Below, piece by piece: positions 1 through 45,917 of a stretch of DNA of 45,917 nt; the first letter of the stretch is position 1, and each line of letters opens with the position of its first letter. Position numbers and translations under genes: made by a program. The notes beneath the pieces were generated by a model. That model searched no databases, was not told the DNA's origin, and saw nothing but the letters and a program-made list of their open reading frames with translations. The stretch is taken from the sequence record MN840485.1; one strand, given 5' to 3'. The stretch comes from Escherichia phage 2725-N35.

Positions 1-983
1 CATCTTTAGCTAGGGCTAACTTCGAAAGAGTAATCTCCATCCATTACATCAATGAGGATGTAACCATCTTCTGTGATGACCAACTCATATTCGTAACCAG
101 TTTTGCGTGATTCGTAGAGAATTTTCCAGTGTAGATAGTAGCCATTTTATTTCTCTCTTTGTGTTTCGTTTCGATGGAGTAACTATACCCCATCTTTTAA
201 AATCGCCTTTAGCAATTCGTGCTATTTTGAAATCATTTCTTTGAATGCTGCAAGAAAACCCTCACGTCCGTAGGCGACTGCCGAGAAACCGCCTGATTCC
301 ATTACACTTTTCAGGAATGCCTTCTGTTCTTCGCTGACTGGACTTGCTTGAGTTTTGCCAGCCCTCTTTAGCTCTATAGCTCCGAAAGGATACTTACCTC
401 GAAGTGATTCAGGAATAAGAAACATACAGTCTGATACGCCTTTTAGAAGCCCCTTAGCCTGGTCTTTTCTTGCTTGACCAATGGTTTTCTTTCCCTCATT
501 CACGCAATGGAAAAATACCATATCTGGGTAGTTATACTTAACCCAATCAGAGCAAAAGATTTGTTCGTCATCCTCTTTAGGGCATGACTTAACCGGACCA
601 GGGTAAAACTCAATGTAATCTTCTTTATCTGTAATCTTCATAATAATTCTCCAAAATTCTTAAACGCTATCACGTCCTTTCCTTTTGCATTCCGGCGATG
701 CGTAACCTGAACTGGCGCACGGAACTTATCTACGTTAGTCATAATCATTCTGGCATTTTTAAGCCTGCCAATTCGCGCCGCTTCCGTGCGATTCTCAATA
801 TGAGCTAAGCAAAAGTTCTTCCAGAGCACACTGCAAACTCGATGGTCTGATTCTGGATTAAAGAACTCCCAAGCGTTAAATCTCTCTCCGTTATGAGCCA
901 TTATATTGTACTTAACTACAATGCCTGTCTGATTCTTACTTAACCCAACTTGAAAATCATAAACACGAAGGTAATCACCACGA
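1..983. repeat. Terminal direct repeat, copy A (matches ~44935..45917); contains the 3' end of the helicase gene, the VRR-NUC gene, one promoter element and the 5' part of a small gene
   Basis: Window start and end are collinear and near-identical; ORF-track proteins at 222..641 and 45156..45575 are identical. Two 2-bp indels between copies: 'gtagaga' at ~115 vs 'gtaga' in copy B, and 'ctttag' at ~5 vs 'ctttgtag' in copy B. Confidence 0.9.
222..641 (-). CDS. VRR-NUC-like (PD-(D/E)XK superfamily) nuclease
   Basis: 139 aa with 'FHCVNEG...', 'GAIELKRAGK' and an E/K-containing core typical of VRR-NUC; start overlaps the helicase stop (ATGA). Confidence 0.6.
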   Translation of the reverse strand: MKITDKEDYIEFYPGPVKSCPKEDDEQIFCSDWVKYNYPDMVFFHCVNEGKKTIGQARKDQAKGLLKGVSDCMFLIPESLRGKYPFGAIELKRAGKTQASPVSEEQKAFLKSVMESGGFSAVAYGREGFLAAFKEMISK

Positions 984-2632
984 CGATACATTTTGCCAGT
1001 CAGGTTAGCATTTGGGTCTTTAAGCATCTCGCCGCATTCCCTGCAAACCTTTGCTGCTATGTCATTGCGAGCGCCACAACCCTTTTTAATTACCGATTTA
1101 GTTTGCGCGTCGGTAATGTCTTCGCAAATTGTGAACTGAAAGAAGTGATCGCACCTAACGCCATCAATCTTATTGCTACAGCGACGAGCGAATGGGGAAT
1201 TTTCATATCCACATTGCGGACACTGACGAACCTCATCGCCACCTTTTCTTGAGGATTTAAACTTCTCAGCCTGAATCTCTTCAATAATTGGGTCAAAGTA
1301 AAGCTCAGCCATATCATCAAGTGCGCCAGCAAAATCCAGCACAAGGTGATCTTCTTTATGAAAACCAGCATCAATATGAGATCTCTTAAGTTTGCGCATC
1401 CCCCTACCAAGAAGCTGAATCATAAGCGTTAGGCTGCCAATCTTGCGTAGTATGACGCTAGTATCCCACAGCGGCTGGTTTACGCCCGTAGTAAGACAAC
1501 CAATCTGGAATATTATTTTGTACTTACCTGTCTGGCAATCAGCTAGAATCTCCCTGCGCTTCCTCTCTCCCGTAGAGTCTGTGATGATGGCGTAAGGGTA
1601 TCCATCTGGTAGTGCCGCAGCAGCCTCATCACAATGGAGTTTGCCAGCGCATGTTACCAATGCAGCGTTACGAGTCTCGAGTATTTTCACAACAAAACCC
1701 ATTATCTTTTGGGTCATTGATTGGTTGTCGTGAATCTTTGCAGCCATTGCATCCATTTCTTTCTTGCTGAAGTCTTTAACGCCATCGCTTCCGTCTGGCG
1801 CAAACTCACTAAGGTCATAACCCAGGTCACCAACTTCACCATAAACAGTAGGAACAACGAAGCCCAAATCAACCAGATAATTTGTTGGCACCTGAATCAC
1901 TGTTTTGCGCCAGAATCCACGGATGTTTGGGTTGCTAACGACGATATGATCGTTGTTACGATACGGGCTGCCAGTAAGACCGAATATACGAAGCTCACGC
2001 CCGTACTTCTCACGACAACGACGTTTCATCTCGGTGATAATTAGCGTGTACTGCGCACGACCAGTACCAAGCAATCCTGTGTTTACGCCATCCTTAAAAA
2101 CCATATCGCCTTTCTTTGTGCTCATTTGCTCAAATGTTTCTTCATTCTCTTCAGCCTCCACGATATCCATGTGATCGACCATGTGACACTCATCTATAGC
2201 GATAACTGCCGGAACATAGTCACCAAGCCCCTTAAACAAGCCGTTGGCTGCCGTACCCTCACTGGCCACTATAGTTGGGTGGTAAACTGATTTGACGTTA
2301 AGGCCAGCGCAATAGACGCTATTACGTATGCCGAAATTACGAAGCTCTTCTGAGTTCTGGCTGATAATCTCTGACTGGCGAGAGAGAACCATATAGGGAA
2401 GCCCAAGCTGCTCCATGCGCTTACCAATCATGGCAAGAATGATTGTCTTACCCGCAGATACTGAAAGGTCTGCGATAAATGGTGCCTCGTACTTGCCAAT
2501 AGCCTTTCCGATTGCATCAAATGTCACGCACTGGAATTCGTAAGGGGTTATCTCTCCAAACTGATAGTCTTTCTGAATCTGTTTGATTCTTTCTTTATCG
2601 AAATTTGCAACCAGCTTCTCGATAGGCAACAT
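638..2632 (-). CDS. SF2 DNA helicase with C-terminal Cys4 zinc ribbon
   Basis: 664 aa; Walker A-like 'SVSAGKT', DExH-like 'IDECH', and C-terminal CPQCG...C..C / CRECG cysteine pairs. Confidence 0.8.
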   Translation of the reverse strand: MLPIEKLVANFDKERIKQIQKDYQFGEITPYEFQCVTFDAIGKAIGKYEAPFIADLSVSAGKTIILAMIGKRMEQLGLPYMVLSRQSEIISQNSEELRNFGIRNSVYCAGLNVKSVYHPTIVASEGTAANGLFKGLGDYVPAVIAIDECHMVDHMDIVEAEENEETFEQMSTKKGDMVFKDGVNTGLLGTGRAQYTLIITEMKRRCREKYGRELRIFGLTGSPYRNNDHIVVSNPNIRGFWRKTVIQVPTNYLVDLGFVVPTVYGEVGDLGYDLSEFAPDGSDGVKDFSKKEMDAMAAKIHDNQSMTQKIMGFVVKILETRNAALVTCAGKLHCDEAAAALPDGYPYAIITDSTGERKRREILADCQTGKYKIIFQIGCLTTGVNQPLWDTSVILRKIGSLTLMIQLLGRGMRKLKRSHIDAGFHKEDHLVLDFAGALDDMAELYFDPIIEEIQAEKFKSSRKGGDEVRQCPQCGYENSPFARRCSNKIDGVRCDHFFQFTICEDITDAQTKSVIKKGCGARNDIAAKVCRECGEMLKDPNANLTGKMYRRGDYLRVYDFQVGLSKNQTGIVVKYNIMAHNGERFNAWEFFNPESDHRVCSVLWKNFCLAHIENRTEAARIGRLKNARMIMTNVDKFRAPVQVTHRRNAKGKDVIAFKNFGELL

Positions 2633-2678
2633 ATCTAAATTCCTATAAAAATTGTCTTGTAGCGTTTAATTGAGTACA

Positions 2679-2722
2679 ATAATACCATCAAATCAGGATG
2701 ACTTTTAACAAAAAATGCTATT
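2679..2722 (-). promoter_or_regulatory. P-box promoter-like element upstream of the helicase operon
   Basis: Minus-strand reading: AATAGCATTTTTTGTTAAAAG, ~21 nt, TATTAT; then ~45 nt leader to the helicase ATG. Confidence 0.5.
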
Positions 2723-2733
2723 GAGGTAATGAA

Positions 2734-3213
2734 ATGAATACAGTCGACAAGCGAACAATTAACGGCAATAACGGAACCATCCGCACCGAAGACAAAAAGC
2801 AACGTAAACGACCTTCAGGCTACTATGTTTTAAAAGATGAAGTAAGAGCCGGGCTACGCGCGCGGCTAGAGATAGTTCTTGATTTCTTCGGCACAAAGGC
2901 GAATATCGCAAAGCAGTTAAAGGTAACACCACAGGCTGTAGAAGAATGGTTTAAGCGCGGTATGATTTCTGCGCGTGGGGCTCAACTTTCTCACAACTAC
3001 TATAAGCGAAATGGAGAAGGTTTTCGCGCTACATTCTGCCGACCAGACCTGCAATTCGACGGCAACGGGAGACCGCTGACACTTCGGTGCAAAAAGCGCC
3101 ATATGCTGCGAGTCGTCACTGAGGCTGAATTAGCCACTAAGCCAGAGTGTCGTTCATGGCGCAAGATAAAATTAGAGAACCAAAAGAAGAAAGAGCAAAA
3201 CAGCACGATTTGA
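2734..3213 (+). CDS. DNA-binding protein with Cro/YdaS-like helix-turn-helix; putative transcriptional regulator
   Basis: 159 aa; 'TKANIAKQLKVTPQAVEEWFKRGMIS' HTH; SD GAGGT upstream of ATG. Confidence 0.55.
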   Translation: MNTVDKRTINGNNGTIRTEDKKQRKRPSGYYVLKDEVRAGLRARLEIVLDFFGTKANIAKQLKVTPQAVEEWFKRGMISARGAQLSHNYYKRNGEGFRATFCRPDLQFDGNGRPLTLRCKKRHMLRVVTEAELATKPECRSWRKIKLENQKKKEQNSTI

Positions 3214-3268
3214 TAAACAATGGCACTTTGCATTATGTATAGTGCCTTTATTGTTTATGGAGGTAATT

Positions 3269-4195
3269 ATGAGTCACAATGATAAGAACGAAGTGATAGC
3301 CAAGATGAAAGGGATGTGGAGTGAGTTCTACTCATCGCATCTTGGATGGACAAAGGAGAATCTCAGCAAGAAACATGGTCCGTGCCCTTACTGCTTTGGC
3401 AAGGATAGGTTTCGCTTCACTGATGAGTTAGGTCAAGAAAAGGGAAATGGCGCAGCAATATGCAACCAGTGTGGAAATGATTCTGGTGTTGGTTGGGTAA
3501 TGAAGTGTTCTGGAATGAGTTATAGTGAAACAATAGATACGCTTGGTGATTGGCTGAATCTCGTTCCAGTAGAGGTTATATCAAAAGCAAACAAAAGAGC
3601 TTCAAGAACATCACCATACAAAATGGGCGCTCAGATTGATCACGAAAGATGCTTAGAGATAATGGAAAGGACGGAAAGAGTAGAATCAACTCCTCTCAGT
3701 ACATACGAGGGTATCTATAGCGAGTTCGGTTTTGATGTTGGCAGGACGAAATCAGGTGAATTAATCCACGCAGTTCCGTGCTTTATGGCTTATAGCGACG
3801 GTATATCAGAAGAAATGTGTAATGTAATGTTTATCAATGAAGAGGGAGATGTTAGTTATGCTGCAAAAGATTATACTCGCCAGTCTATTTCTGTTATTGG
3901 TTCCCTTAAGGATGATGAGTACGCTTATCTGGTCGATAATCTCATTGACGGCTATCATGTTCACATTGCTACTGGCAACCGCTGCGTGCTTGTTTGCCAC
4001 TCCAGTTACAACATGGAAATGGTTGCTTACGCGCTTAGAAACTACAAGTTACGCATCGCTTGTACTCGCAGCGATTTTGATTTACTCGCCGTTGCTGACG
4101 ATCGCAATCTTGATGTTGTAATGCCAAATAATGATAACCACTTCAAATCAGGAATAAGAAAGCGAATATACAAGGCGAGCGAATTACTAGACTAA
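3269..4195 (+). CDS. DNA primase (zinc-finger type), putative
   Basis: 'CPYCFGKDRF...CNQCGN' zinc-binding motif; sits next to the helicase; start moved to the ATG preceded by GGAGG (track ORF begins at GTG 3242). Confidence 0.55.
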   Translation: MSHNDKNEVIAKMKGMWSEFYSSHLGWTKENLSKKHGPCPYCFGKDRFRFTDELGQEKGNGAAICNQCGNDSGVGWVMKCSGMSYSETIDTLGDWLNLVPVEVISKANKRASRTSPYKMGAQIDHERCLEIMERTERVESTPLSTYEGIYSEFGFDVGRTKSGELIHAVPCFMAYSDGISEEMCNVMFINEEGDVSYAAKDYTRQSISVIGSLKDDEYAYLVDNLIDGYHVHIATGNRCVLVCHSSYNMEMVAYALRNYKLRIACTRSDFDLLAVADDRNLDVVMPNNDNHFKSGIRKRIYKASELLD

Positions 4196-4216
4196 CCTCC
4201 TTCGGGAGGTTTTTTT
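4196..4216 (+). terminator. Rho-independent terminator after primase
   Basis: CCTCC-ttcg-GGAGG hairpin followed by T7. Confidence 0.8.
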
Positions 4217-4221
4217 ATGAC

Positions 4222-4258
4222 TCAAAGATGCTACAATCCACTTTAGCAATTCGTGCTA
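4222..4258 (+). promoter_or_regulatory. Extended -10 promoter (TGcTACAAT) followed by an inverted copy of the P-box upstream motif; candidate operator
   Basis: gaTGCTACAATccacTTTAGCAATTCGTGCTATTTT immediately upstream of the tail fibre gene. Confidence 0.45.
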
Positions 4259-4282
4259 TTTTACAAATGGAGACTCTACACA

Positions 4283-6817
4283 ATGGCAATTTATGACTCA
4301 GGAACAGCTTCTCTAGCAGCAAGTGGTGAGGTGACTGGCGTCGGGACAACATGGAAAGCACCTCTTACACTGATTCGTGTAGGTGCAACCATTGTATTTA
4401 AAACTGAACCAGTACAGATTTACACCATCTCAGAAATTATCAGCGATACGCAGATTAATGTTTACAACCCTAACTCCGAAACTGTTCCTGCTGGAACTGG
4501 TTACGCTATCCTTGCGCATGATGGAATTACCGTTCAGGGATTGGCTCAGGATGTAGCAGAGACTTTGCGTTACTACCAGTCTAAGGAGACATCCATCGAA
4601 GGATTGCTGCAATTTATTGGTCAAGACACTTTCGACTGGCCTCGCTTCGAGCAACTTGCAAATCAATCAATCACTGGAGCTGCGGAGGCGCTTGCTAGTC
4701 AGGTTACTGCCGCAGAGAGTGCTTCTACTGCTGTTAGCGCAAGAGACGCAACAACATCAGCGAGAGATGCTACTATTGAGGCAATTAATAGTGCTGGTGA
4801 TGCCAGCACGCTGGTTACTCTTGCTAATATTGGTATTGGTACATCATCACAGCCGCAGATAAGTGCGATTGACTGGCAGACGTATGATTTCAAGTCAATG
4901 TCTAGCTTCACAACGACGCTGCAGTCGATGAGTAACTTGCCTGCGGGGTTGAATTTTGCAACCGGAAACCCATACCTTTTTGTTACAGTTCTTTCATCAA
5001 GGTCTGTCGCAGGGACTGTATCGGCAAAGGTTCAAGTTTCAACAAGGGCCGATAACGACAACAACACAAGAGTTTACGACGTTTACGTAAATGGGAACGT
5101 CGGGTCTAGGGTTTTTTCTGTAAGAGAGAATCTTAGCCTTGTTTCAAACTCAACAACACCCGACGGAGGTGTAACTGCGGATAGAATCAGAAGCAGACTT
5201 GATATTTACTCAAAGAGTGAGACTGATGGGGTTGTAGATGCTCTTAAAAACTTCAAGCTTAATAATGTTTCATCAGTAGTTAGAAGTGTGGAATCAAAAC
5301 TTGGTGACTTTGTTAACGTCATGGATTTTGGTGCTACAAACAATGGTACTTTAGTTCCTCTTTCATCTAAATTTTCGACAATTGAGGATGCGCGGTTTGT
5401 TTATCCATTTGCATCAAACCTTAACGAGTCACTTGACGCAGTTGCGCTTCAGGCGGCGGTTAATACTGGCAAAACGGTATACATACCAAAAGGATTTATG
5501 TTTATTAACAGGACTGTAAGGATTGGCAACAGCACGAGAATTATTGGTGAGGGGACAAGCCAAATAAACAGGGCGCAAACATTTATATCAGTTGATGGAA
5601 ACATAAACCTGTTTGCCTTGGTTCAGGGTGGTGCTGAAAACATAAGAATGTATCAAGTATTTATTGAAGGACTTTACATTTTTTATAACCCAGGAACTAC
5701 ACCGACCGTAGCATCAGGGAATGATCAAAAGATAGCATTCAACTTTGTTTCTAATGTTGGTTCTGCCACAGGGCTAGAAAATTCATGTATCAAAGATTGC
5801 ACAGTTCATGGAGCGTGGGGTTGCTACCTTGATACTACTGGAACGTATCAAACAAAGCTGCAAAACGTATGGGCAAGGAACTGTAGAAACGGATTCATTA
5901 AAGCCACAGGAACTACAATTCTTATGGAAACATGCTACGCATCTGGCTGCGTTTCTCCTTTTGAATTTGGTTCAGTAATGAGTGTGACAATGATTAACTG
6001 CGCAATGGATGCCAGTAATATATCATCAACATCAGGTTCTTATGGTGGGGCTGGAATTAACTTCATCAACAGCCATAGTGTAAACATACTAGGGATGGAC
6101 GTCGAAGGTAACATTATTGACACCAACGGTTCTCAGGATTGCTGCCTTATTAGGTTTAATAACTCAAATGGCAGGATTTCTGGACTAACGTCATGGAAAA
6201 ACGAGGTTAGAACAACTGGAGGTGGTTCTGGTGGTGTGGTTTCATATATCAAGGCCTCTGGAACGTCTCACGTCATTATTGACTCGTCTGAGGATGATAT
6301 TAATGATAGCGGATTGGTTTACACTGGAACTGGTGGATATCCAGTAACAATTTACGCGGCAGATTCGGCGTCAAGGATTGATATTCTCAGCGGTAGGTTC
6401 CAGTCAGCTAAAGGGGGCTCCCCTTCGATATCGGTTGTTAGTCAGGGCAATGTGAACTGGTTTACTGAGCCTATGGGTGGTTCTATTGCTGGTGGTTATA
6501 AGCAGACATACTCATCAGAAGGATTGAGGACTAATGGTGTTTATACGGATAAAGGTTCAAAGGTGGTACAGGCAAGCGTTCCAACTGGGCTATTTGAATT
6601 ACCAAACTCACCAGGCTTGTACAAGGTTTGTACCTGGGTGGCTAATGCTGGAACAAACTATAGCGTCATAGCTGACGTTCTATTTGATGGAGCCACATCA
6701 TCAATTACAGTCACTAAGACGGCAGCATTTACAACACTGGATGTTAGTTCAAGGACTGTCAGTATAACTGCACGGGGTGCAGCCACTTACAAATGGACTT
6801 ACACTAAAATAGGTTAA
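4283..6817 (+). CDS. Tail fibre/tailspike protein with predicted right-handed beta-helix (possible depolymerase) domain
   Basis: 845 aa; N-terminus 'MAIYDSGTASLAASGEVTGVGTTWKAPLTLIRVGATIVFK' as in T1/T5-type fibre anchors; central region rich in N/G/T/S beta-helix-like repeats. Confidence 0.65.
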   Translation: MAIYDSGTASLAASGEVTGVGTTWKAPLTLIRVGATIVFKTEPVQIYTISEIISDTQINVYNPNSETVPAGTGYAILAHDGITVQGLAQDVAETLRYYQSKETSIEGLLQFIGQDTFDWPRFEQLANQSITGAAEALASQVTAAESASTAVSARDATTSARDATIEAINSAGDASTLVTLANIGIGTSSQPQISAIDWQTYDFKSMSSFTTTLQSMSNLPAGLNFATGNPYLFVTVLSSRSVAGTVSAKVQVSTRADNDNNTRVYDVYVNGNVGSRVFSVRENLSLVSNSTTPDGGVTADRIRSRLDIYSKSETDGVVDALKNFKLNNVSSVVRSVESKLGDFVNVMDFGATNNGTLVPLSSKFSTIEDARFVYPFASNLNESLDAVALQAAVNTGKTVYIPKGFMFINRTVRIGNSTRIIGEGTSQINRAQTFISVDGNINLFALVQGGAENIRMYQVFIEGLYIFYNPGTTPTVASGNDQKIAFNFVSNVGSATGLENSCIKDCTVHGAWGCYLDTTGTYQTKLQNVWARNCRNGFIKATGTTILMETCYASGCVSPFEFGSVMSVTMINCAMDASNISSTSGSYGGAGINFINSHSVNILGMDVEGNIIDTNGSQDCCLIRFNNSNGRISGLTSWKNEVRTTGGGSGGVVSYIKASGTSHVIIDSSEDDINDSGLVYTGTGGYPVTIYAADSASRIDILSGRFQSAKGGSPSISVVSQGNVNWFTEPMGGSIAGGYKQTYSSEGLRTNGVYTDKGSKVVQASVPTGLFELPNSPGLYKVCTWVANAGTNYSVIADVLFDGATSSITVTKTAAFTTLDVSSRTVSITARGAATYKWTYTKIG

Positions 6818-8003: not shown

Positions 8004-8050
8004 ATCATACCCCGCATTTTAATTTTGTCTTTAGCAATTCGTGCTGTTTA
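8004..8050 (-). promoter_or_regulatory. P-box promoter upstream of the erf-ssb operon
   Basis: AACAGCACGAATTGCTAAAG, 22 nt, TATGAT; 29-nt leader to erf ATG. Confidence 0.6.
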
Positions 8051-8224
8051 AATTTCTTTATACTTCCTCATATCCCACTCAGTAACATCTAAATCAATCT
8101 CTGTTGCGCCCATTGCATAACCTGGCCACACATCATTCTCTTTGCACTTCTTGTAAGTGGCAAGCGCCTCTAAGTACATCCTGCGACCAACCCTCAGTTG
8201 CTCTTCTGTAATATTATAAAGCAT
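8048..8224 (-). CDS. Small hypothetical protein (58 aa, below ORF-track cutoff)
   Basis: ORF MLYNITEEQLRVGRR...; stop lies inside the P-box motif; weak RBS. Confidence 0.3.
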   Translation of the reverse strand: MLYNITEEQLRVGRRMYLEALATYKKCKENDVWPGYAMGATEIDLDVTEWDMRKYKEI

Positions 8225-8262
8225 TGGTAAGTAAGGCTCTTCTTTCTCGATTGCAAGCAGCC

Positions 8263-9012
8263 TTACTTTTGTTTCTCTTTTTCATTAAAAGCTCTAACAA
8301 AAACATCGTTCTGAAGCGCCATTTTTGCAAGATAACCGTGCTTAAATGCAAGCCTTCCAAACTCCTGAGGTGATGCGCTGGCTGTCGTTTTCAGATCGGT
8401 AATACACACCACGCCGTCAACAACGTCAACATGGTCAATTCGAATCTTAACGCCGACGCCGAGAATCTCACCGAAGATTGATAACTCTTTCTGCGCCGTC
8501 TCACTATTCACGATTGCATTGTATGCCGGAATATTGCAAAGAACCTCACGCATAGCCACAACTTTGTCATAGTCTGCTGCGCTAACTAGCTCCTTACCCT
8601 CCACAAGCGCTTGAGCGCTTTCCAGCTGATCAATTAGCCACTTAATGGGCCAGTCCTCGCCAGAACGATACATCATCTCTACAAGCTCGCTATAGCCCTT
8701 CCCTGATGTTCCAGCCACACCGACTTTTTTAAGTGCTGCTGCTAATCCTGCCTGGCTTGTAATTAAGCCTTCAATCGCGTCAAGGTCTGCTGCTCGCAAA
8801 TACTCCTTGTCGAATACATCTTGTTCGAGAATCATGCAGTGAGATAAGGTACCAAACTTAAGCGCCTTGCTATCGCTATTGCGTTGCTTGAACTTCCACT
8901 TAGCTGGTGATCCTTGGATAATCTCGACAAGTGAGCTGCCGGAGATATGATCTTGCTCTGAGTGGTAATCCTCGTTGCTTAGCTCCTCTCGTGTGTAAAC
9001 CCTGAAAGTCAT
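8263..9012 (-). CDS. PD-(D/E)XK exonuclease (YqaJ/lambda-Exo-like), putative partner of Erf
   Basis: 249 aa; 'IRIDHVDVVDGVVCITDLKTT' D...D/E-x-K motif; lies upstream of erf. Confidence 0.6.
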   Translation of the reverse strand: MTFRVYTREELSNEDYHSEQDHISGSSLVEIIQGSPAKWKFKQRNSDSKALKFGTLSHCMILEQDVFDKEYLRAADLDAIEGLITSQAGLAAALKKVGVAGTSGKGYSELVEMMYRSGEDWPIKWLIDQLESAQALVEGKELVSAADYDKVVAMREVLCNIPAYNAIVNSETAQKELSIFGEILGVGVKIRIDHVDVVDGVVCITDLKTTASASPQEFGRLAFKHGYLAKMALQNDVFVRAFNEKEKQK

Positions 9013-9206
9013 TTTATTTTCACCTCAACATTTCTCGTTGAAACAGTAACAGGAACTTCACTACAACCCATAAGTGCTTTCGCTAAATCAGAACATGTAG
9101 TTGTTATATTTATCTCCCTTCCTGTGCTAAATTTTACCCTTAATCTTACCTCAGGATCTTTCTCGTCGTTGTATGGTGACTTATTTATGTCTATAAAAGC
9201 CTTCAT
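9009..9206 (-). CDS. Hypothetical small protein
   Basis: 65 aa ORF in operon context, 4-nt overlap with downstream gene. Confidence 0.45.
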   Translation of the reverse strand: MKAFIDINKSPYNDEKDPEVRLRVKFSTGREINITTTCSDLAKALMGCSEVPVTVSTRNVEVKIK

Positions 9207-9209
9207 ATT

Positions 9210-9404
9210 TTATTCCTTAACCTTAACCACTTTAACAGACTTCAAATCTTCTTCAGTGAAGTAACCAGTCAGCACATCTCGGGCTTCTTCTTTAGTCTCG
9301 AATCTGTCAGCCTCTTTCTTATCTGTTGTGTACCCAGCAGGTCCACCAAAGTAGCAGTCGCCGAACAGTGCGTTGTTTTTCTCTTTGATAATGTAGTAGG
9401 TCAT
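9210..9404 (-). CDS. Hypothetical small protein
   Basis: 64 aa ORF, first gene after divergent region A. Confidence 0.45.
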   Translation of the reverse strand: MTYYIIKEKNNALFGDCYFGGPAGYTTDKKEADRFETKEEARDVLTGYFTEEDLKSVKVVKVKE

Positions 9405-9424
9405 TTCTCTATCTCTATGGTTGT

Positions 9425-9480
9425 TTGCTTTCGATTGGTTAACTATATATTCGGCACCGTAGCCAGTCCAATTGGTTTTG
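9425..9480 (-). promoter_or_regulatory. Degenerate P-box promoter for the 9404-leftward operon
   Basis: Minus reading: ...GCAAAACCAATTGG, 22 nt, TATATAGTTAACCAATCGAAAGC leader. Confidence 0.4.
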
Positions 9481-9711
9481 CCAATCGTTGATTCAATTTT
9501 ACGCGTTAATCATTGTAATTCCGTGTAGGTATTGCCGCTAGTTACGTTTCTTGGCATCTCAGCCCAGCTATAGCTCAATGTAACTAGTGTGTATGTCGTG
9601 TATATCATTTATTGCTGAGGGTGCATTGGTATAGCAGCCGCGCAATACTGTATAAATCCACATGATATTAAAATTATAACCGGAACACTCTATAGAAGTG
9701 GTTACATGATA

Positions 9712-9775
9712 TACACAGTAATATATATAATAATAATAATAAGAGTAAAAGGTTGTTATATATAGATATTTTAAT
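9712..9775. repeat. AT-rich element with (TAA)n microsatellite, copy 1 (copy 2 at ~36306..36372)
   Basis: acacagtaatatatataataataataataagagtaaaaggttgttatatatagatatt; ~90% identical to copy 2. Confidence 0.8.
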
Positions 9776-9867
9776 GTAACTAATGCGTAAATTAGCGTAA
9801 CAGAGCGTATATCATTTTCCGCGGATGAGATTGTATACATCGAGTTACATCGGTTACGTGTATGCAA

Positions 9868-9935
9868 TAGCACGAATAGCTAAAGACATTCCGCACTGAC
9901 GGTTGTATTATTACTACATCGAAACGAAACAACTT
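9868..9935 (+). promoter_or_regulatory. P-box promoter for the lipoprotein/receptor-binding protein operon
   Basis: AATAGCACGAATAGCTAAAG, 23 nt, TATTAT, TACTACATCGAAACGAAAC leader. Confidence 0.55.
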
Positions 9936-9950
9936 AATAAGGAATACAAA

Positions 9951-10196
9951 ATGACTAACTTCATCAAATCAGCAATCATAGCGGCGGCAGTAATCATGAC
10001 GGTAGGTTGTTCTTCTGGTCCTCGACCTGATGGGTGGTGTGCAACACAAGCAAACGGCGTGTGCGTAGCTAAGTGGAAAGGCGGTGTAGTTGTTCCGGCT
10101 GGTGATGTTGATATTCGCTACGCTGGCATTGAAAGCAAATCTGGCGGCGGTTACGGCGGTTCTGTTGCAGATCACGGCAGTAAGGAGTGGAAATAA
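9951..10196 (+). CDS. Small lipoprotein; candidate superinfection-exclusion factor
   Basis: Signal peptide with lipobox (...IMTVGC SSG); SD AAGGA; track ORF trimmed to this ATG. Confidence 0.6.
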
Positions 10197-11158
10197 TGCC
10201 GCAGGGTATATTGATTGACCTCAATGACGGAAGACCAGCGATGGAAATCACGGCAGGATTAAGGGCACCTGCTGTGACTGGATCAATAAATACCAATGGA
10301 CTTTCAACCCCAGCAATCTCGTGGGATTTTGGATTGACAATGTCTCCTGGCTCTACGGCTTTCTGCCTACCAACGAAGGCAGTCCACGTTGACGCTTACG
10401 ATGTTATACCCGAAGTTTATTACATGAACGGGTTTCAAAAGGTAAATGACGGAACTGGCAGGATAACTCTCAGCAACTTCAATGGTGCTAATGGTCGAAT
10501 AATTGACTTTGCTGGTAATTGCTTTGAGATACTACCGGCTTCACCCTCATCAAGTCCTGGAATACTTGTTGAGAACTCAACTGATTTCCTTGCTATATCA
10601 AGCAACTCGCGTCTAATGTCTGCGGCCTGGGTTGGTGGCATACAGGTTAACGGTGCAGCATCGCTACCAGTTAGCGGAATACCATTCGGCAAGTGGGATA
10701 ATCCAAACGTATCACTTGAATCAGATGGATCAACAATATGGTGTAGGGATATAACCTACGGAGGTACAGATGATGTTGCGGCAAGTACCCATGTTCAGCT
10801 GGTGATATTCAGGAATGAACCACCACCAGCAGGGCCCGGGCTCACAATGTCAAATAGTTCTGGTCAGATTGTTTTTTCAAGTGTTCGCCGCCCATTCGTT
10901 CTTGGTGGATTTATACAAATAAGCAATGGATATCAGTCAATAAATGGTGGTTTCTTCCCGCTGCTTAGGTGCGGCGCTACGACTAGAGTTACCGGAGGGT
11001 ATAACAACTTACGATACAAGGGTGTTTGCATGTCTGGAGGCTCCGTTAGGGCTGTTCCTGGATCTGTAATAGGTAACTACTCAACTCAGACAGGCGCTCA
11101 GTTTCCTTTCGACACGAACATATCAATGGCACTTCCATTTATCCCAAACTTCTACTAA
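10196..11158 (+). CDS. Putative receptor-binding or distal tail protein
   Basis: 321 aa; ATG overlaps the lipoprotein stop (TAATG); convergent on the J-like gene. Function inferred from context only. Confidence 0.4.
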   Translation: MPQGILIDLNDGRPAMEITAGLRAPAVTGSINTNGLSTPAISWDFGLTMSPGSTAFCLPTKAVHVDAYDVIPEVYYMNGFQKVNDGTGRITLSNFNGANGRIIDFAGNCFEILPASPSSSPGILVENSTDFLAISSNSRLMSAAWVGGIQVNGAASLPVSGIPFGKWDNPNVSLESDGSTIWCRDITYGGTDDVAASTHVQLVIFRNEPPPAGPGLTMSNSSGQIVFSSVRRPFVLGGFIQISNGYQSINGGFFPLLRCGATTRVTGGYNNLRYKGVCMSGGSVRAVPGSVIGNYSTQTGAQFPFDTNISMALPFIPNFY

Positions 11159-11159
11159 A

Positions 11160-11189
11160 AGAAAAGCCCCAATTAAGGGGCTTTATTTA
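11160..11189. terminator. Bidirectional terminator between the putative receptor-binding protein gene and the J-like gene
   Basis: GCCCC-aattaa-GGGGC flanked by T-runs on both strands. Confidence 0.75.
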
Positions 11190-14615: not shown

Positions 14616-14623
14616 TCTACACT

Positions 14624-14649
14624 AAATAAAAAACCCGCACTAGGCGGGT
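14624..14649 (-). terminator. Intra-operon hairpin with T-run between the I-like and J-like genes
   Basis: ACCCGC-ctagt-GCGGGT then T6AT3 on the minus strand. Confidence 0.5.
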
Positions 14650-14656
14650 ATGATAT

Positions 14657-15968: not shown

Positions 15969-15977
15969 TGTTCCCCC

Positions 15978-16733: not shown

Positions 16734-16750
16734 ATATTTCTCCAACAAAA

Positions 16751-16767: not shown

Positions 16768-16771
16768 TAGT

Positions 16772-17122: not shown

Positions 17123-17133
17123 AAAAATCCTTA

Positions 17134-26196: not shown

Positions 26197-27291
26197 TTAT
26201 TTCTTAATTTTAGCTAAACGAGCACGTGGGTCTAATTTCTTAGGCTCATCGGCGCTGTCAGATTTGTCGGAAGCAGTAGTTGCTTTACGTACTTCAGCCA
26301 TTTTATCAGATTCTTTGGCAATGTCGAATGCCGCGTCGATGTATGCGTCAGACTTCTCACTAACATCAAGACCGGAGACTTCTTTAACGTAAGCAACTTT
26401 AATGCCTTTAGCATCCAGACCGTCAGCCTTAACACCAGCCTCAGCAGCAACAGCAACCAGAGCGGCTAGGGCATCAGCATCAGCTTTCGCTTTAGCAACG
26501 GCAGCTTCGATTTCAGCTGGCATTGCATCTACTTTAGCTTTCAGAGAATCGCGCTCTGCGATTGCAGTGTCAGCCTTTGCGTTCAGTGCTTCGATGTGAG
26601 AAGCGATTTCCGGGGCAACTTCAAATTCCTGTGCTCCGTCGAGTTTAATCTTAATCATTTTCTGTTTATCCTCTTTATTGATATCAACGTCAGTAGTATA
26701 CGGGTTTTCCTGTTGAGCGTCAAAATTTAACTTTGCCACCTGAGCTCTTCCTTTGTATACCAGTGCGACATGGTTTACTTTAATTTCAGTCTGCAGCGCA
26801 TCGAATCTAACCCAGTCAGAAGGAATTTCATCCTGTGATTGATACTCACCGTCTAGCTTGTACTCACCAGTTTCGTTACTACCCCAGCCTTTAGACTCAA
26901 CGTCAACAGTTGAGTACCCTACGGATAGCTCACCAGCAATGCCATTTTTTGCCTTCTCGATTGATTCCTTGTCATAAATAGTTAGTGGAACAATAACATT
27001 TGAATCTTCACGCATTGCTGAGCCAGATACCGCCCCTACAACGACCTCTTTAGCATTCTCTGAGTTAACAAAAACATGACCTAAGGTAATTGGCTTACCC
27101 TGATAACTAGCCAGAGAATCATGCTTAAATACCTCTGAGGCTGGTCTAAATTCTCTGCGTTCTTTGCCATCTGGAAGGTAGTAGGTTTGCACCCCGACGC
27201 GTGCAACAATCGGGGTATCAACCAGAAAGCCGTTTTCATCAAATCTAGCTTTCACCTTCGCGCTGTCATAGCGCAATTTCTTCATTAACAA
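26197..27291 (-). CDS. Head morphogenesis protein (possible prohead protease/scaffold fusion)
   Basis: 364 aa directly downstream of portal; C-terminal A/K/E-rich coiled-coil-like region. Confidence 0.45.
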   Translation of the reverse strand: MLMKKLRYDSAKVKARFDENGFLVDTPIVARVGVQTYYLPDGKERREFRPASEVFKHDSLASYQGKPITLGHVFVNSENAKEVVVGAVSGSAMREDSNVIVPLTIYDKESIEKAKNGIAGELSVGYSTVDVESKGWGSNETGEYKLDGEYQSQDEIPSDWVRFDALQTEIKVNHVALVYKGRAQVAKLNFDAQQENPYTTDVDINKEDKQKMIKIKLDGAQEFEVAPEIASHIEALNAKADTAIAERDSLKAKVDAMPAEIEAAVAKAKADADALAALVAVAAEAGVKADGLDAKGIKVAYVKEVSGLDVSEKSDAYIDAAFDIAKESDKMAEVRKATTASDKSDSADEPKKLDPRARLAKIKK

Positions 27292-28534
27292 CCTCCGTCT
27301 CTGTGATTAATTCCGATTCCTCGGCCTGGATATCGCCATCACCAATCTTAATTTCTGGTGCGATAGTGCGTAGTGTATCACGGGCTTCGTTAGTATCCAT
27401 AGCGCCAGATGCAATTAGCGTCGCGATGCTGCTTACGTTCTTCTCAAGAATCTCAGCCTTATCCTTGCTTGACTCCTGAGCTAAGGGATAAAACTCAACT
27501 GACCACTCTTCTACATTTACGATGAACGGGATTAAGAACCCAAGAATAGGAAGCAACTCAGAGTTACGTTTGCGGTCAACTAGCTTATGGAATGTCTCAA
27601 GGGCTGTATTCTGGCTTGATGACACACCACCAACGTTCTTGTTTTTCAGGATGATTTCATGGATACCGCTCAGGGCAACGATTCTATCGAACTTCTTATC
27701 CAGGAACGCATCGATCCCGCCAATATCGGAGTTGAGAATGCTGTATTCTTCAGATTCCGCATCGATACCAATCGCCTGGCCTACGCCGCTATTGTTGTCA
27801 ACCTGTGCAAGTCTCAATCGAGCTGCACCAAATCCTTCGCTATCATCACATAACTCAGCCAGACCTTTCGCCTTCCACACCGCCTGCTGCTTGCGCTTCA
27901 GTAACTGCGTAGCAAGTCGTTCACAGTTGGTGTAATCCTTAATTGAGTCAAGAATGTCACTGGATAGAACGCTACGGCCCCAGCCATCATTTTGCCGACG
28001 CATTACGTTAGGAATTCGCTCACCATCTATGATATGAATGCGGCTATAATGCACATCGTAGAACATATCGCTTTCGTTTGTGGTGATGCGATAGGTTAGG
28101 GGATTACCAAAACGTGCGTTGCGTGGATTCTCCTCTCGAGTTTGTACTTTCACCTGCGTGCGGTCGTAAACACGAACGGTTTCAAGTTCTGCGCCTTCTC
28201 TTACCGGGCTTGTTAGAGATCTATTGTCTTTGACGATAGCCACAATAGCAGAACCGCCGAACAATCTAGCCCACGACCAGGCTTCGTTGATGTGCTTTGT
28301 CAGCTCCAGGTAGTCCCAACGAGACCAAAATGCTGGCTCATCATCAATACCATCAATGTGGAATCCTGCCGCTAATGCTGTCTCAGGGATTGTGTCGATA
28401 ATTCTACGTACCAGCGCATTATTCGCATAAAGAGAAGCCAGGATTGTAGGCTCCTGATTCTGTAAGCTCCCGTAAATCTCACTACCATCACTGCCGCCGA
28501 GAAAGATATTGGCGTAGCTGTCTGTCTTTACCAT
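27266..28534 (-). CDS. Portal protein
   Basis: Size and position downstream of terminase; start trimmed to ATG (MVKTD...) after the upstream hairpin. Confidence 0.7.
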   Translation of the reverse strand: MVKTDSYANIFLGGSDGSEIYGSLQNQEPTILASLYANNALVRRIIDTIPETALAAGFHIDGIDDEPAFWSRWDYLELTKHINEAWSWARLFGGSAIVAIVKDNRSLTSPVREGAELETVRVYDRTQVKVQTREENPRNARFGNPLTYRITTNESDMFYDVHYSRIHIIDGERIPNVMRRQNDGWGRSVLSSDILDSIKDYTNCERLATQLLKRKQQAVWKAKGLAELCDDSEGFGAARLRLAQVDNNSGVGQAIGIDAESEEYSILNSDIGGIDAFLDKKFDRIVALSGIHEIILKNKNVGGVSSSQNTALETFHKLVDRKRNSELLPILGFLIPFIVNVEEWSVEFYPLAQESSKDKAEILEKNVSSIATLIASGAMDTNEARDTLRTIAPEIKIGDGDIQAEESELITETEVVNEEIAL

Positions 28535-28551
28535 TGCATTTCTCCAATAAA

Positions 28552-28575
28552 AAAGCCCCATGTGGGGGCTAGTTT
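28552..28575 (-). terminator. Hairpin with T-run upstream of portal
   Basis: GCCCCC-acat-GGGGC then T5. Confidence 0.5.
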
Positions 28576-28989: not shown

Positions 28990-29045
28990 GTGAAGTAACT
29001 ATACGCCATCCGTGGCTCTAGCGTTTAGCAATTCGTGCTATTTAA
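28990..29045 (-). promoter_or_regulatory. P-box promoter for the 28592..28966 moron
   Basis: AAATAGCACGAATTGCTAAAC, 22 nt, TATAGTTACTTCACACAAAC; the TerL stop codon (TAG) lies within the motif. Confidence 0.6.
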
Positions 29046-30609
29046 TTCCCGCTATGCGCATTAGTCGCGCTTTGGGGTCATCTGAGATATTGAGAACAAG
29101 GTTTACCGCCATTGTCATGGTATCAATTTGGTCGTCGTGCTTATGCGAGTCGTCTGCAGTGAAAGCCGCAATCTCAGTGAGTAATCCGCTTAGCCACGGT
29201 GCTGACTCCGGAAGAACGACGTTACCAGCCTTAATCTGTGGCAATGCGCTCATTACCCTAGTTAGCTTGTCGTTATCCGGTACGTATGGCTCTATCGGTG
29301 TTCGCATAACCCTGCCAGCTGATTGAATAAGGCCGATACCAGACGCTTTCTTCTCGATAATAATCTTTCGGAGGATACCATCCGACTGACTGGTTGCCCT
29401 TGATTTCTTCTCGAAGTCCAGTAGTTCAGCTTCCAATTCCGGCGCTTCCCACTTACCTCTGCGCTGGTCTATCAGGTAAATCCTAGCATCCTTATAGCCC
29501 CATAACTGAAGCACGGAGAAGTCACTATAACTCTTTGTGGTCATCGCAGTATCGCAAGTTATGAATCTATAATCGTACTTGGCTGGAGGCCTGAATGTAT
29601 CACTAAGACGCTGGAACCAGTCTACGTTAATCAGATTGCCACCAAGTGCTACAGGTTCTTGTTGATACTGACTTAGGAAAGTGTACGGGTCAGCATCCCA
29701 CATAGCCATCAAGTCTTCTATTGATTCCTTTGCCGGAAAGTAGCTGTAATACTTAACTCCATCCCGCTCTACGAATGGCGAAGAAAGAACATCATCAATA
29801 AATTGTTGCTTAATCCAATCAGGAAGCGTGTCTACGTAATCCTCTGTGACTATGGCTGGAACTTTCACTACGTCGAACTTGATGCCCATTTGTCCAGACT
29901 CCATGAAGTGGCTAGTATCCAGAACATGAAGTCTTTGCTGAACTGCAAGTATTGGCGTTTCCTTTCCCTTTACTGAGCTAGCTCGACGTGAACGAATTGT
30001 GTTCTTGAGAAGCATATTGACAGCCTCTCTTCTTACATTACTTAGCGCGTCATCAGGTTTTAGTGGGTCATCCAGCATTATGCAACCACTATAATCGTCA
30101 GTCATGTAGCCACCCCTACTTCCCGTCACCTGTCCAGCCATCGCCTTAGATATAGACTCAAACCTAACTTTGCCACTCTCATCCAGCACCTGAATCTCGT
30201 CATCCCTGCATGTTCCAAAGGTGCAAGGCCAAAGCTCCTGGAACTCCTTTGACTTAATTAGGTCACGGACGCGCTTGGAGTTGCGCTTAACCAATGAGTC
30301 AGAGAATGACAAACTAAGATTCCTGACCTTCTTAATCTTAATCATGCTATACACAGGGAAGTGAATGCTAAAAAGTTCGGTTTTGGCAGATCCAGGAGCT
30401 ATGTTTATGATGGTGTCCTTTCTCTTTCCCTCAAGAATCTCATCTATAACACGGCATAGGTACTTAGTATGCCAATTCATTTTGAATCTCTCGCCCTGAG
30501 TTATCTGGAAGAAACACCGCAAGAACCACTCGAAACTATGCTCAGAGATGGCCTTGATAGCCATTTTTTCTGCATACGTCAGTTCATCCCACACGATTAA
30601 ATCACTCAT
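29038..30609 (-). CDS. Terminase large subunit
   Basis: Walker A-like 'IAPGSAKT', Walker B 'CIMLDDP', C-terminal nuclease-like region; start chosen at ATG after GGAGG (track ORF extends to 30690, overlapping the HNH gene). Confidence 0.85.
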   Translation of the reverse strand: MSDLIVWDELTYAEKMAIKAISEHSFEWFLRCFFQITQGERFKMNWHTKYLCRVIDEILEGKRKDTIINIAPGSAKTELFSIHFPVYSMIKIKKVRNLSLSFSDSLVKRNSKRVRDLIKSKEFQELWPCTFGTCRDDEIQVLDESGKVRFESISKAMAGQVTGSRGGYMTDDYSGCIMLDDPLKPDDALSNVRREAVNMLLKNTIRSRRASSVKGKETPILAVQQRLHVLDTSHFMESGQMGIKFDVVKVPAIVTEDYVDTLPDWIKQQFIDDVLSSPFVERDGVKYYSYFPAKESIEDLMAMWDADPYTFLSQYQQEPVALGGNLINVDWFQRLSDTFRPPAKYDYRFITCDTAMTTKSYSDFSVLQLWGYKDARIYLIDQRRGKWEAPELEAELLDFEKKSRATSQSDGILRKIIIEKKASGIGLIQSAGRVMRTPIEPYVPDNDKLTRVMSALPQIKAGNVVLPESAPWLSGLLTEIAAFTADDSHKHDDQIDTMTMAVNLVLNISDDPKARLMRIAGIK

Positions 30610-31114
30610 CTTTCCTCCCATGGTTTTTATGATACCCAAGAATAAATTCAGCCCTCGCCCTGACAATCGACGCGTCGTGAATATTATCAAAGAATCCCAA
30701 GTGAATATTCTCTCCGTCCTTTTTTATTTGAGCCGCATACTTACCAGTCCTGGATACTATGCAGACTCCGGTAACCCCGGTCTTATTCCTCGAATTTATT
30801 GATTGATTCTTTCTATTTTCCTGAATTGTAACTAACCTAAGGTTTTCTATCCTGTTATCATTTCTAACATGATTTATATGGTCAATTTGCATACCTTCTG
30901 GTATTGCTCCGTTATGCATTTCCCAGATTATTCTATGAACCCAATATTTTTTACCCGGCATGTTTACCCTAACATACCCTAGGCTTTTATCAATGCCGCC
31001 AACCTCTTTCCCTATGAATCTTCGCTGTATCCTTCTCCTTCCAAGCTTCTCGCTATCGTAATCTTTCCAGTAAATCTTCCCATCTTTGTATTCAAAATAA
31101 TCATGCCAATTCAT
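30602..31114 (-). CDS. HNH endonuclease (homing-endonuclease-like)
   Basis: 'IDHINHVRNDNRIENLRLVTIQENRKNQ' HNH motif; inserted between terS and terL. Confidence 0.8.
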   Translation of the reverse strand: MNWHDYFEYKDGKIYWKDYDSEKLGRRRIQRRFIGKEVGGIDKSLGYVRVNMPGKKYWVHRIIWEMHNGAIPEGMQIDHINHVRNDNRIENLRLVTIQENRKNQSINSRNKTGVTGVCIVSRTGKYAAQIKKDGENIHLGFFDNIHDASIVRARAEFILGYHKNHGRKDE

Positions 31115-31182
31115 ATCGCCACCTCGTTAGTTTGTTGGGCCCATTATCTCATTGATTGGGCCTCTTCTTTTAACAATAATTG

Positions 31183-31689
31183 CTATAACTTACTAATAAC
31201 AGACTCCAGCGCTTCCTTCATGCTATCAACGTCGTTAGCTGTGGAGTTGTTGCTAATGGTAATCTCCTGCGGCTTATCAATCCCTAGCTCTTTACCAACG
31301 ATTGTGGAGTTGATGATGCCTGCAACGCCAAGCTGATACTTCTGCTCGTAAATTACGTTATCAATAAATTCCATCACATCAGAGTATCCAGCCTCTGTAC
31401 GCCAGCGTGCGAATCTATTGATGTTAACACCCATGAAGAGCGCCAGACCTGTTAATGTGAATACTCGAGGCTTGTGCACTAAACTCTCGCTAACCACGCC
31501 CTGGAATGCCGCCGTCTCAATGGCTTTGATTGCCTCATTCTCAGCCCATGAAAAGTATCTCACTGCAAAGTCAAATACCTCCTCTGGAGTGCACTTGCGG
31601 TTGATTGCCACCATAGCAATATCGCCATACTTCTTGTTATAAAGCGCCTTGAAATTTCCATCACCCATCTTTAATGCTGCTTTGCTCAT
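31183..31689 (-). CDS. Terminase small subunit, putative
   Basis: 168 aa directly upstream of HNH/TerL; first gene after a strong promoter. Confidence 0.6.
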   Translation of the reverse strand: MSKAALKMGDGNFKALYNKKYGDIAMVAINRKCTPEEVFDFAVRYFSWAENEAIKAIETAAFQGVVSESLVHKPRVFTLTGLALFMGVNINRFARWRTEAGYSDVMEFIDNVIYEQKYQLGVAGIINSTIVGKELGIDKPQEITISNNSTANDVDSMKEALESVISKL

Positions 31690-36027: not shown

Positions 36028-36039
36028 GTTGATACCTCG

Positions 36040-36110
36040 TTTGTTTTACTTCGTTTCAGTGACTGCTATATTGCCATCTATTTACGTGTCGGTCAATGTA
36101 TATTTTCGTC
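36040..36110 (-). promoter_or_regulatory. Promoter for the 36027-leftward operon (TTGACC -35-like, TATAGC -10-like)
   Basis: Minus reading: ATACATTGACCgacacgtaaatagatggcaaTATAGCagtcactGAAACGAAG; resembles P-box downstream half. Confidence 0.4.
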
Positions 36111-36305
36111 TATTTTATCATGGATACGCTTTTTGCCTCCAGAGGCCCCTCCATTGCTGGTTGTAAATGTGCCGTATCCGATGTGTACAGATTTTTGAAG
36201 CCATTCCCTATATATGTGCCTTTTATTCCTACAATGCCATCCATTTCTGACAGGTGTCAGAATATCTGCGCGGAACATATCAATAATCTCACCAATTACC
36301 GGTAT

Positions 36306-36372
36306 ACACAGTATACATATATATAATAATAATAATAATAATAAAGTAAAAGGTTGATATATATAGATATTA
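36306..36372. repeat. AT-rich element with (TAA)n microsatellite, copy 2
   Basis: acacagtatacatatatataataataataataataaagtaaaaggttgatatatatagatatt; matches copy 1 at ~9712..9775. Confidence 0.8.
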
Positions 36373-36479
36373 TATTGTATATCGTGTGTATATATCGCGT
36401 AAAAACGTAGGTTAGTGGTCACTAACTTTTGTGACGACACTGAGTATACGGAGGATACGCGTATATCCGTGAGGCTCCC

Positions 36480-36660
36480 ATAGATTGGTAAAAATCAACT
36501 TGTATGGTAGTCAATCCATCTTTCATTCACTCACTCACCACTTCATTTCACTTTTCGCAACAATCAAAAACATCATTGCATCTGAAGCAATATTGCTATA
36601 TGCGCAATAATCATGTGAATCATTGCAATATCTGCAACAATCCATAAATCTGACGAATGG
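36480..36660. repeat. Cluster of short direct/inverted repeats (iteron-like) in divergent region B
   Basis: Repeated GCAACAATC, CATTGCA(A)T, palindrome GCAATATTGC, and tcattcac/tcatttcac direct repeats. Confidence 0.5.
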
Positions 36661-36715
36661 CACTTTTTGCTAAAGACATGCGGGGATGGCGAGGATATAG
36701 TTAACTCATCAAAAC
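36660..36715 (+). promoter_or_regulatory. P-box promoter for the rightward small-gene operon
   Basis: AATGGCACTTTTTGCTAAAG, 23 nt, TATAGTTAACTCATCAAAACGAGG. Confidence 0.6.
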
Positions 36716-36727
36716 GAGGGGATAGAA

Positions 36728-44724: not shown

Positions 44725-44882
44725 TATTCCGATACCTCCAATCCATCAACCAGCTTAATTGGAACAACAACCTCACACCCACCATCAATTACGAAAACAA
44801 ACTTATCAATGTATTGTGAGAATGTATTGAAGAAGAACGTTGAATCCTCCCCAGTTTTCCAGTTTACAATTGCCTCTCTCAT
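44724..44882 (-). CDS. Hypothetical small protein (52 aa)
   Basis: ORF MREAIVNWKTGED...; ATGA-coupled to the upstream gene. Confidence 0.3.
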   Translation of the reverse strand: MREAIVNWKTGEDSTFFFNTFSQYIDKFVFVIDGGCEVVVPIKLVDGLEVSE

Positions 44883-45079
44883 TCTGATACCTCATCAAAT
44901 TTTTCGCCAAATTCGTTTTTAACAGTTTCTAAATCATCTTTGTAGCTAGGGCTAACTTCGAAAGAGTAATCTCCATCCATTACATCAATGAGGATGTAAC
45001 CATCTTCTGTGATGACCAACTCATATTCGTAACCAGTTTTGCGTGATTCGTAGAATTTTCCAGTGTAGATAGTAGCCAT
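44879..45079 (-). CDS. Hypothetical small protein
   Basis: Start set at ATG (MATIYTGKFY...) 30 nt downstream of the P-box -10; track ORF extends to 45127. Confidence 0.45.
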   Translation of the reverse strand: MATIYTGKFYESRKTGYEYELVITEDGYILIDVMDGDYSFEVSPSYKDDLETVKNEFGEKFDEVSE

Positions 45080-45116
45080 TTTATTTCTCTCTTTGTGTTT
45101 CGTTTCGATGGAGTAA

Positions 45117-45162
45117 CTATACCCCATCTTTTAAAATCGCCTTTAGCAATTCGTGCTATTTT
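45117..45162 (-). promoter_or_regulatory. P-box promoter (archetype; duplicated at ~182..228)
   Basis: AAAATAGCACGAATTGCTAAAGG, 22 nt, TATAGTTACTCCATCGAAACGAAAC; VRR-NUC stop TAG lies inside the box. Confidence 0.6.
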
Positions 45163-45575
45163 GAAATCATTTCTTTGAATGCTGCAAGAAAACCCTCACG
45201 TCCGTAGGCGACTGCCGAGAAACCGCCTGATTCCATTACACTTTTCAGGAATGCCTTCTGTTCTTCGCTGACTGGACTTGCTTGAGTTTTGCCAGCCCTC
45301 TTTAGCTCTATAGCTCCGAAAGGATACTTACCTCGAAGTGATTCAGGAATAAGAAACATACAGTCTGATACGCCTTTTAGAAGCCCCTTAGCCTGGTCTT
45401 TTCTTGCTTGACCAATGGTTTTCTTTCCCTCATTCACGCAATGGAAAAATACCATATCTGGGTAGTTATACTTAACCCAATCAGAGCAAAAGATTTGTTC
45501 GTCATCCTCTTTAGGGCATGACTTAACCGGACCAGGGTAAAACTCAATGTAATCTTCTTTATCTGTAATCTTCAT
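45156..45575 (-). CDS. VRR-NUC-like nuclease (duplicate of 222..641 within the terminal repeat)
   Basis: Identical 139-aa translation. Confidence 0.6.
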   Translation of the reverse strand: MKITDKEDYIEFYPGPVKSCPKEDDEQIFCSDWVKYNYPDMVFFHCVNEGKKTIGQARKDQAKGLLKGVSDCMFLIPESLRGKYPFGAIELKRAGKTQASPVSEEQKAFLKSVMESGGFSAVAYGREGFLAAFKEMISK

Positions 45576-45917
45576 AATAATTCTCCAAAATTCTTAAACG
45601 CTATCACGTCCTTTCCTTTTGCATTCCGGCGATGCGTAACCTGAACTGGCGCACGGAACTTATCTACGTTAGTCATAATCATTCTGGCATTTTTAAGCCT
45701 GCCAATTCGCGCCGCTTCCGTGCGATTCTCAATATGAGCTAAGCAAAAGTTCTTCCAGAGCACACTGCAAACTCGATGGTCTGATTCTGGATTAAAGAAC
45801 TCCCAAGCGTTAAATCTCTCTCCGTTATGAGCCATTATATTGTACTTAACTACAATGCCTGTCTGATTCTTACTTAACCCAACTTGAAAATCATAAACAC
45901 GAAGGTAATCACCACGA
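45572..45917 (-). CDS. Helicase gene, 3' portion (duplicate, truncated by the window end)
   Basis: Translation identical to the C-terminus of the 638..2632 product. Confidence 0.6.
   Translation of the reverse strand, partial: RGDYLRVYDFQVGLSKNQTGIVVKYNIMAHNGERFNAWEFFNPESDHRVCSVLWKNFCLAHIENRTEAARIGRLKNARMIMTNVDKFRAPVQVTHRRNAKGKDVIAFKNFGELL

Follow-up and report, generated by a model that had tools for sequence, protein, structure and literature searches.

Headful packaging from concatemers yields virion DNA that is terminally redundant and permuted, and reads from such DNA tile a circle. In phages of the T7 type, each cycle produces the true terminal repeats anew from a single template. Common short-read assemblers, for their part, leave overlaps of about the size of a k-mer. 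Headful packaging initiated at pac, with circular permutation and without fixed ends, has been described for SU57 (PMC7718038), MSK (PMC8421802), TLS and T1 (PMC11447400) and KanT1 (PMC13164509), and the KanT1 paper describes T1-like phages as having no fixed ends (PMC13164509). SU57, which belongs to the same genus as the phage studied here, is circularly permuted, and the start of its record was set at the likeliest end given by PhageTerm, located in an untranslated region that is followed by many small ORFs (PMC7718038). MSK packages by the pac headful mechanism in the forward direction, starting from position 36,862 (PMC8421802). In TLS and T1, three or four headfuls are filled per pac site, and the redundancy per headful in TLS is ~1 kb (PMC11447400).

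We analysed the whole 45,917-base sequence recorded for Escherichia phage 2725-N35 (MN840485.1), which is referred to below as the window. The phage belongs to the same family as T1, TLS, Rtp, MSK and SU57, shares its genus with SU57, carries genes for TerS, TerL and the portal protein, and has a homologous non-coding region at ~36.5 kb. Given this pac-headful biology, reads of the phage are expected to assemble as a circle. The window begins and ends with two copies of the same sequence of nearly 1 kb. In contrast to the redundancy of the T1-like phages, this duplication does not lie at pac-proximal ends, and it is thus hardly the physical terminal redundancy of a virion molecule. The duplication exists in the sequence file without being a property of the genome, and represents the well-known end-overlap signature of a complete phage genome that assembles as a circle. 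As in other contigs with this signature, the repeat reaches the outermost base at both ends of the contig, the trimmed length fits the genus, and colinearity with relatives is maintained through the junction. However, at 983 bp the overlap exceeds the k-mer-sized ones of short-read assemblies, and the match is not perfect, since two 2-nt indels lie close to its 5' end.

The phage and its relatives

Judged from its sequence, the phage is a T1-like Escherichia coli siphovirus of the Drexlerviridae, Braunvirinae, genus Veterinaerplatzvirus, the genus placement being based on nucleotide identity and colinearity. Megablast comparison with phage records showed that four T145P1 records (OZ0357xx) were 97-98% identical to the window over positions 1-6000, and that OZ035767 was 99.8% identical over positions 44600-45917. 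Colinear blocks with 86-99% identity covered most of the genome in the comparisons with OZ035767 and OZ035786, and the colinear blocks shared with SU57 showed 66-92% identity. The trimmed unit of 44,934 bp falls within the 44,219-45,509 bp of the Veterinaerplatzvirus records.

The identity to OZ035767 and OZ035786 was strongly mosaic, with values of 99.2% at 1-4581, 95.7% at 38648-45917, 93% at 8047-24831 and ~86% at 25.6-30.6 kb. It amounted to just 70-80%, or the sequences were unaligned, at ~36.9-38.6 kb and ~4.6-5.2 kb. This mosaic identity suggests recombination between Veterinaerplatzvirus lineages.

Extent of the duplication

Local alignment showed that window positions 1-983 are repeated at 44935-45917, as the initial annotation had claimed for the first ~983 bp. 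All of the 981 aligned bases were identical (0 mismatches), and the two copies, hereafter copy A at the window start and copy B at the window end, differed by two 2-nt gaps. Positions 1-6 pair with 44935-44940, 7-115 with 44943-45051, and 118-983 with 45052-45917. An end match of 983 bp cannot arise by chance. Copy A opens at window base 1 and copy B closes at the last base, 45917, so that the contig ends, and no internal boundary, determine how far the repeat extends. The two indels cancel, and the net length difference between the copies is 0. Because the +2 and -2 changes compensate each other in this way, the unit genome is 44,934 bp with either copy retained, which agrees with the ~44.93 kb proposed earlier for the unique genome.

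All genes of the repeat are on the minus strand, namely part of the small phrog_6031 ORF, the VRR-NUC nuclease gene, and the 3' part of the helicase gene (Table 1). The nuclease gene is duplicated as a whole. Of the helicase gene, the final 87 codons and a few further bases are duplicated at 45572..45917, and the inner boundary of the repeat lies inside this ORF. The other boundary lies inside the small ORF, the first 193 of whose 249 nt are within the repeat.

Table 1. Features of the window that bear on the terminal duplication, packaging and the intergenic repeat
Feature	Coordinates	Strand	Remarks
Copy A of the terminal duplication	1..983	.	Redundant copy; has the aberrant state at both indel sites
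Copy B of the terminal duplication	44935..45917	.	Native upstream context; agrees with relatives at both indel sites
GT missing from copy A	7..8	.	GT at 44942-44943 in copy B
Extra AG/GA dinucleotide of copy A	116..119	.	TAGAGAA, against TAGAA at ~45050-45054 in copy B; frameshifts the small ORF
Truncated form of the small ORF, 49 aa	44..193	-	Probably artefactual; product on record nowhere
Intact small ORF	44879..45127	-	Function unassigned; phrog_6031, E=1e-33, match from residue 17
VRR-NUC nuclease gene	222..641; whole duplicate at 45156..45575	-	PF08774
DNA helicase gene, 664 aa	638..2632	-	phrog_16
T1-like intergenic repeat, 21 nt, ATAGCACGAATTGCTAAA	208..225; also 45142-45159	-	Within the duplication
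Intergenic repeat sites	208-225, 2704-2721, 4242-4259, 8030-8047, 9867-9884, 21151-21168, 29024-29041		Window scan
Intergenic repeat sites, further	32890-32907, 34002-34019, 34980-34997, 37849-37866, 44101-44118, 45142-45159 and others		Window scan
Portal gene	27266..28561		Profile matches
TerL gene	29038 to ~30.6 kb	-	Profile matches
HNH endonuclease insert between TerS and TerL	30602..31114	-	PF13392, E=8e-23; phrog_99
TerS gene	31183..31689	-	Profile matches
Non-coding divergent region, 700 nt	36028..36727	.	Published packaging starts of SU57 and MSK map here

The repeated stretch in related genomes

Whole-record alignment with OZ035767 gave two blocks at the junction. Window 4581-1 was matched by OZ035767 26137-30717, and window 45917-38648 by OZ035767 29735-37006. 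These blocks overlap in OZ035767, and both window copies thus correspond to one 983-nt stretch of that genome, 29735-30717. With its 44,816 bp, the OZ035767 record itself corresponds to one unit; it opens immediately upstream of TerS (window ~31718) and lacks an end repeat. A search of the whole records of SU57, MSK, OZ035767 and OZ035786 for end repeats found none, with weak short matches of 71-78% identity only. In the relatives, the repeated stretch is single-copy and lies within the replication module (small ORF, VRR-NUC nuclease, helicase). Logan and NCBI contigs from many independent samples carried the run helicase, VRR-NUC, small ORF uninterrupted and away from their ends, at distances from the ends that varied among them. 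In the MK9072xx records (44,219 bp), the repeat segment was found at many different coordinates and on both strands, indicating that assemblies in this genus are circular and are linearised at arbitrary positions. The gene content of the region around the small ORF varies between relatives.

The repeat touches both contig ends, it is single-copy in colinear relatives, and the unit length fits the group. The duplication is very probably the overlap of a linearised circular assembly, with the indels of copy A as errors at the contig end. Under this explanation, virions would be filled by headfuls from concatemers, beginning at pac, and their DNA would be terminally redundant and partly circularly permuted, so that its reads tile the circle. 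The assembler would have run 983 bp beyond its own start, and the overlap would have been left untrimmed. The break point would be arbitrary and happens to fall within the replication module. The first ~120 bases may have been called from few or low-quality read ends, which would account for the two 2-nt indels; the frameshifted small ORF at the window start would then not be real, and copy B would be the true sequence. The earlier proposal that the duplication fits the assembly of a circularly permuted or terminally redundant genome is supported by the pac-headful family of the phage, by the single-copy, internal position of the stretch in relatives, and by the location of the window ends away from the mapped packaging start at ~36.5 kb (see below).

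The two indels and the small ORF

The GT site reads CATCTTTGTAGC in copy B and CATCTTTAGC in copy A, the extra GT of copy B being at 44942-44943. The loss of GT in copy A creates a TAA in the frame of the small ORF on the minus strand. The AG site reads CGTAGAGAATTTT in copy A and CGTAGAATTTT in copy B, with the extra AG/GA of copy A lying within 116-120. The initial annotation had assigned both dinucleotides to the correct copies; its placement of the GA near 115-120 holds, whereas its position for the GT, 44943-44944, was one base off.

The small ORF spans both indel sites and encodes 82 aa as listed. Its start is probably the ATG at 45079, the position at which the phrog_6031 match begins, giving a protein of 66 aa. 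In copy A, the AG insertion puts translation out of frame beyond codon 9 (counted in the 66-aa form), and a 49-aa product results, with its stop at 44..46. The frameshift that had been predicted for the window-start copy from the GA indel is therefore confirmed, with the ORF intact in copy B. We also considered the +2/-2 pair as a compensated frameshift, that is, a real allele with ~36 recoded codons. This was rejected, since the stop at 44..46 precedes the second indel.

Comparison with other sequences showed which of the two copies is the outlier. In the alignment of the four T145P1 records, all four had the copy-B state at both sites. A scripted check of Logan contigs gave the same result for the contigs alignable at the AG site (2 of 2) and at the GT site (9 of 9). 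We also ran exact-pattern scans for the AG site that accepted either state. One metagenome contig contained the 33-mer of this site and had the copy-B state, and neither the IMG/VR viral contigs nor the GTDB genome contigs contained a match to the pattern. The scans did not recover the contig from which the window itself derives. The copy-A state of the AG site was thus seen in no public sequence, and at either indel it was found in no relative or public contig that could be aligned there. The exact 82-aa product of copy B is encoded on 14 contigs from different samples, and a look-up of the 49-aa product of copy A found no record. In the alignment with OZ035767, the two indels were the only gaps of copy A in a 4.58-kb block at 99.2% identity, and copy B had neither of them in a 7.27-kb block. 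Both indels are located within the first 119 nt of the contig, and the other 864 nt are identical between the copies. By our arithmetic, the chance that two random differences in 983 nt both fall within 119 nt is (119/983)^2, or ~0.015.

Read from these comparisons, the copy-A indels are probably consensus errors at the contig end, and copy B probably represents the true sequence. Consensus error is favoured because the indels are near the 5' end, all relatives have the copy-B state, and the copy-A product is unrecorded. One feature fits this reading less easily: as errors, a gain and a loss of a dinucleotide that offset each other (+2, -2) are somewhat unusual. Of the two origins offered by the initial annotation for the differences, consensus errors and population heterogeneity, the former is much better supported and the latter disfavoured. 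Heterogeneity would mean that a minority haplotype with a knocked-out phrog_6031 allele coexisted with the wild type, the overlap itself still being an artefact. Such a haplotype would explain the presence of both indel states in one contig, and its loss of a small ORF of unassigned function, in a region of variable gene content, may be tolerated. However, it requires two independent lesions 110 nt apart that both happen to lie so close to the contig end, and these lesions would not restore the frame. It is also at odds with the exact conservation of the intact protein and with the lack of the copy-A states and of the copy-A product among relatives and public contigs. We consider a coexisting allele improbable.

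Packaging genes and probable physical ends

Measured around the circle, 13-16 kb separate the packaging genes (29038..31689, minus strand) from the window ends. Homology mapping placed the record start of SU57 at window ~36488 and the PhageTerm start of MSK at window ~36507, the MSK coordinate being taken as that of GenBank MW057918, an assumption that is supported by the agreement with SU57. The two determinations are independent and lie ~20 bp apart in the window. Both map upstream of the terminase genes, to the non-coding divergent region at 36028-36727, which is thus the probable region of pac and of the first cut; no pac sequence was identified within it. The region contains an AT-rich, (TAA)n/TATA-rich stretch at 36296-36393, a related copy of which is present at 9703-9792.

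The forward packaging direction of MSK corresponds to descending window coordinates. The window junction is located 8.4 kb from the packaging starts against this direction and ~35.5 kb along it. With steps of ~1 kb, a series would have its starting point at unit coordinate 983 only at about the 36th headful, compared to the three or four reported for T1 and TLS. The distance of the junction from the mapped start, together with the headful number that it would require, indicates that the window ends are not virion ends.

These positions bear on the possibility that the duplication is physical, in which case the window would correspond to an actual molecule from a virion, or to the prevailing class of such molecules, ending at these positions. 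The phage is of a pac-headful lineage according to the literature on its relatives, the virion DNA of T1-like phages is terminally redundant, and the redundancy of TLS (~1 kb; PMC11447400) is close to 983 bp. This closeness in length also counts against an assembly overlap, but the position of the window ends argues the opposite. The packaging starts of SU57 and MSK at ~36.5 kb are away from the window ends, which are not part of a pac-proximal series of cuts. Furthermore, the window is a clean consensus without the scattered indels of a single-molecule read, and a consensus of a permuted population has no defined ends. We rejected the similarity of 983 bp to the TLS redundancy as a sign of a physical repeat on the basis of the position relative to the packaging start and of this clean consensus. 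Ends of a real molecule at these positions are very improbable. There is only a slight chance that either the copy-A indels are a co-circulating allele or the 983 bp mark a real virion class from a very long headful series; if so, the contig would inform on population heterogeneity in Veterinaerplatzvirus or on the processivity of packaging.

Direct terminal repeats at fixed sites, as in phages of the T7, T5 or N4 type, had been left open by the initial annotation and are effectively excluded. The window resembles them solely in its form, a phage-sized contig with a direct repeat at each end, whereas its copies are non-identical and differ by a frameshifting indel, its repeat boundaries cut the small ORF and the helicase gene and are not conserved, the position is internal and single-copy in relatives, the records of SU57, MSK, OZ035767 and OZ035786 are without end repeats, and the family packages by the headful without fixed ends.

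Two further observations concern the terminase region. The HNH endonuclease gene between TerS and TerL looks like a mobile insertion within the terminase operon. At the counterpart of window 30595-31178, just ~22 nt are present in OZ035767 and OZ035786, and TerL directly follows TerS in SU57. A tRNA-Arg(TCT) is located upstream of TerS at 32000-32077 (minus strand), and SU57 has one at the corresponding place. AHP24-like T1-like phages have one arginyl-tRNA (PMC4070988).

Curation of the record and the intergenic repeat

The finding of an assembly overlap is relevant to curation only. Trimming positions 1-983 and retaining copy B gives a genome of 44,934 bp in which the VRR-NUC gene is not counted twice, and it avoids the annotation of a spurious frameshifted ORF and of a truncated helicase fragment. 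The end repeat supports the completeness of the genome and is no evidence for fixed terminal repeats. A meaningful start for the trimmed record could be placed at ~36.5 kb, where homology with SU57 and MSK puts the probable pac-proximal end, or immediately upstream of TerS, where the T145P1 records begin.

The duplication also includes a copy of an intergenic repeat, ATAGCACnnnTTGnTAAA, that recurs along the genome. A scan of the window found 18 matches with at most one mismatch, compared to 0.02 expected by chance (Table 1). The repeat matches aaATAGCACnnnTTGnTAAAA, a 21-nt element described in TLS, T1 and Rtp, to which no function has been assigned (PMC11447400). The copy at 4242-4259 differs from the rule described for TLS, as it lies on the minus strand between two plus-strand genes.
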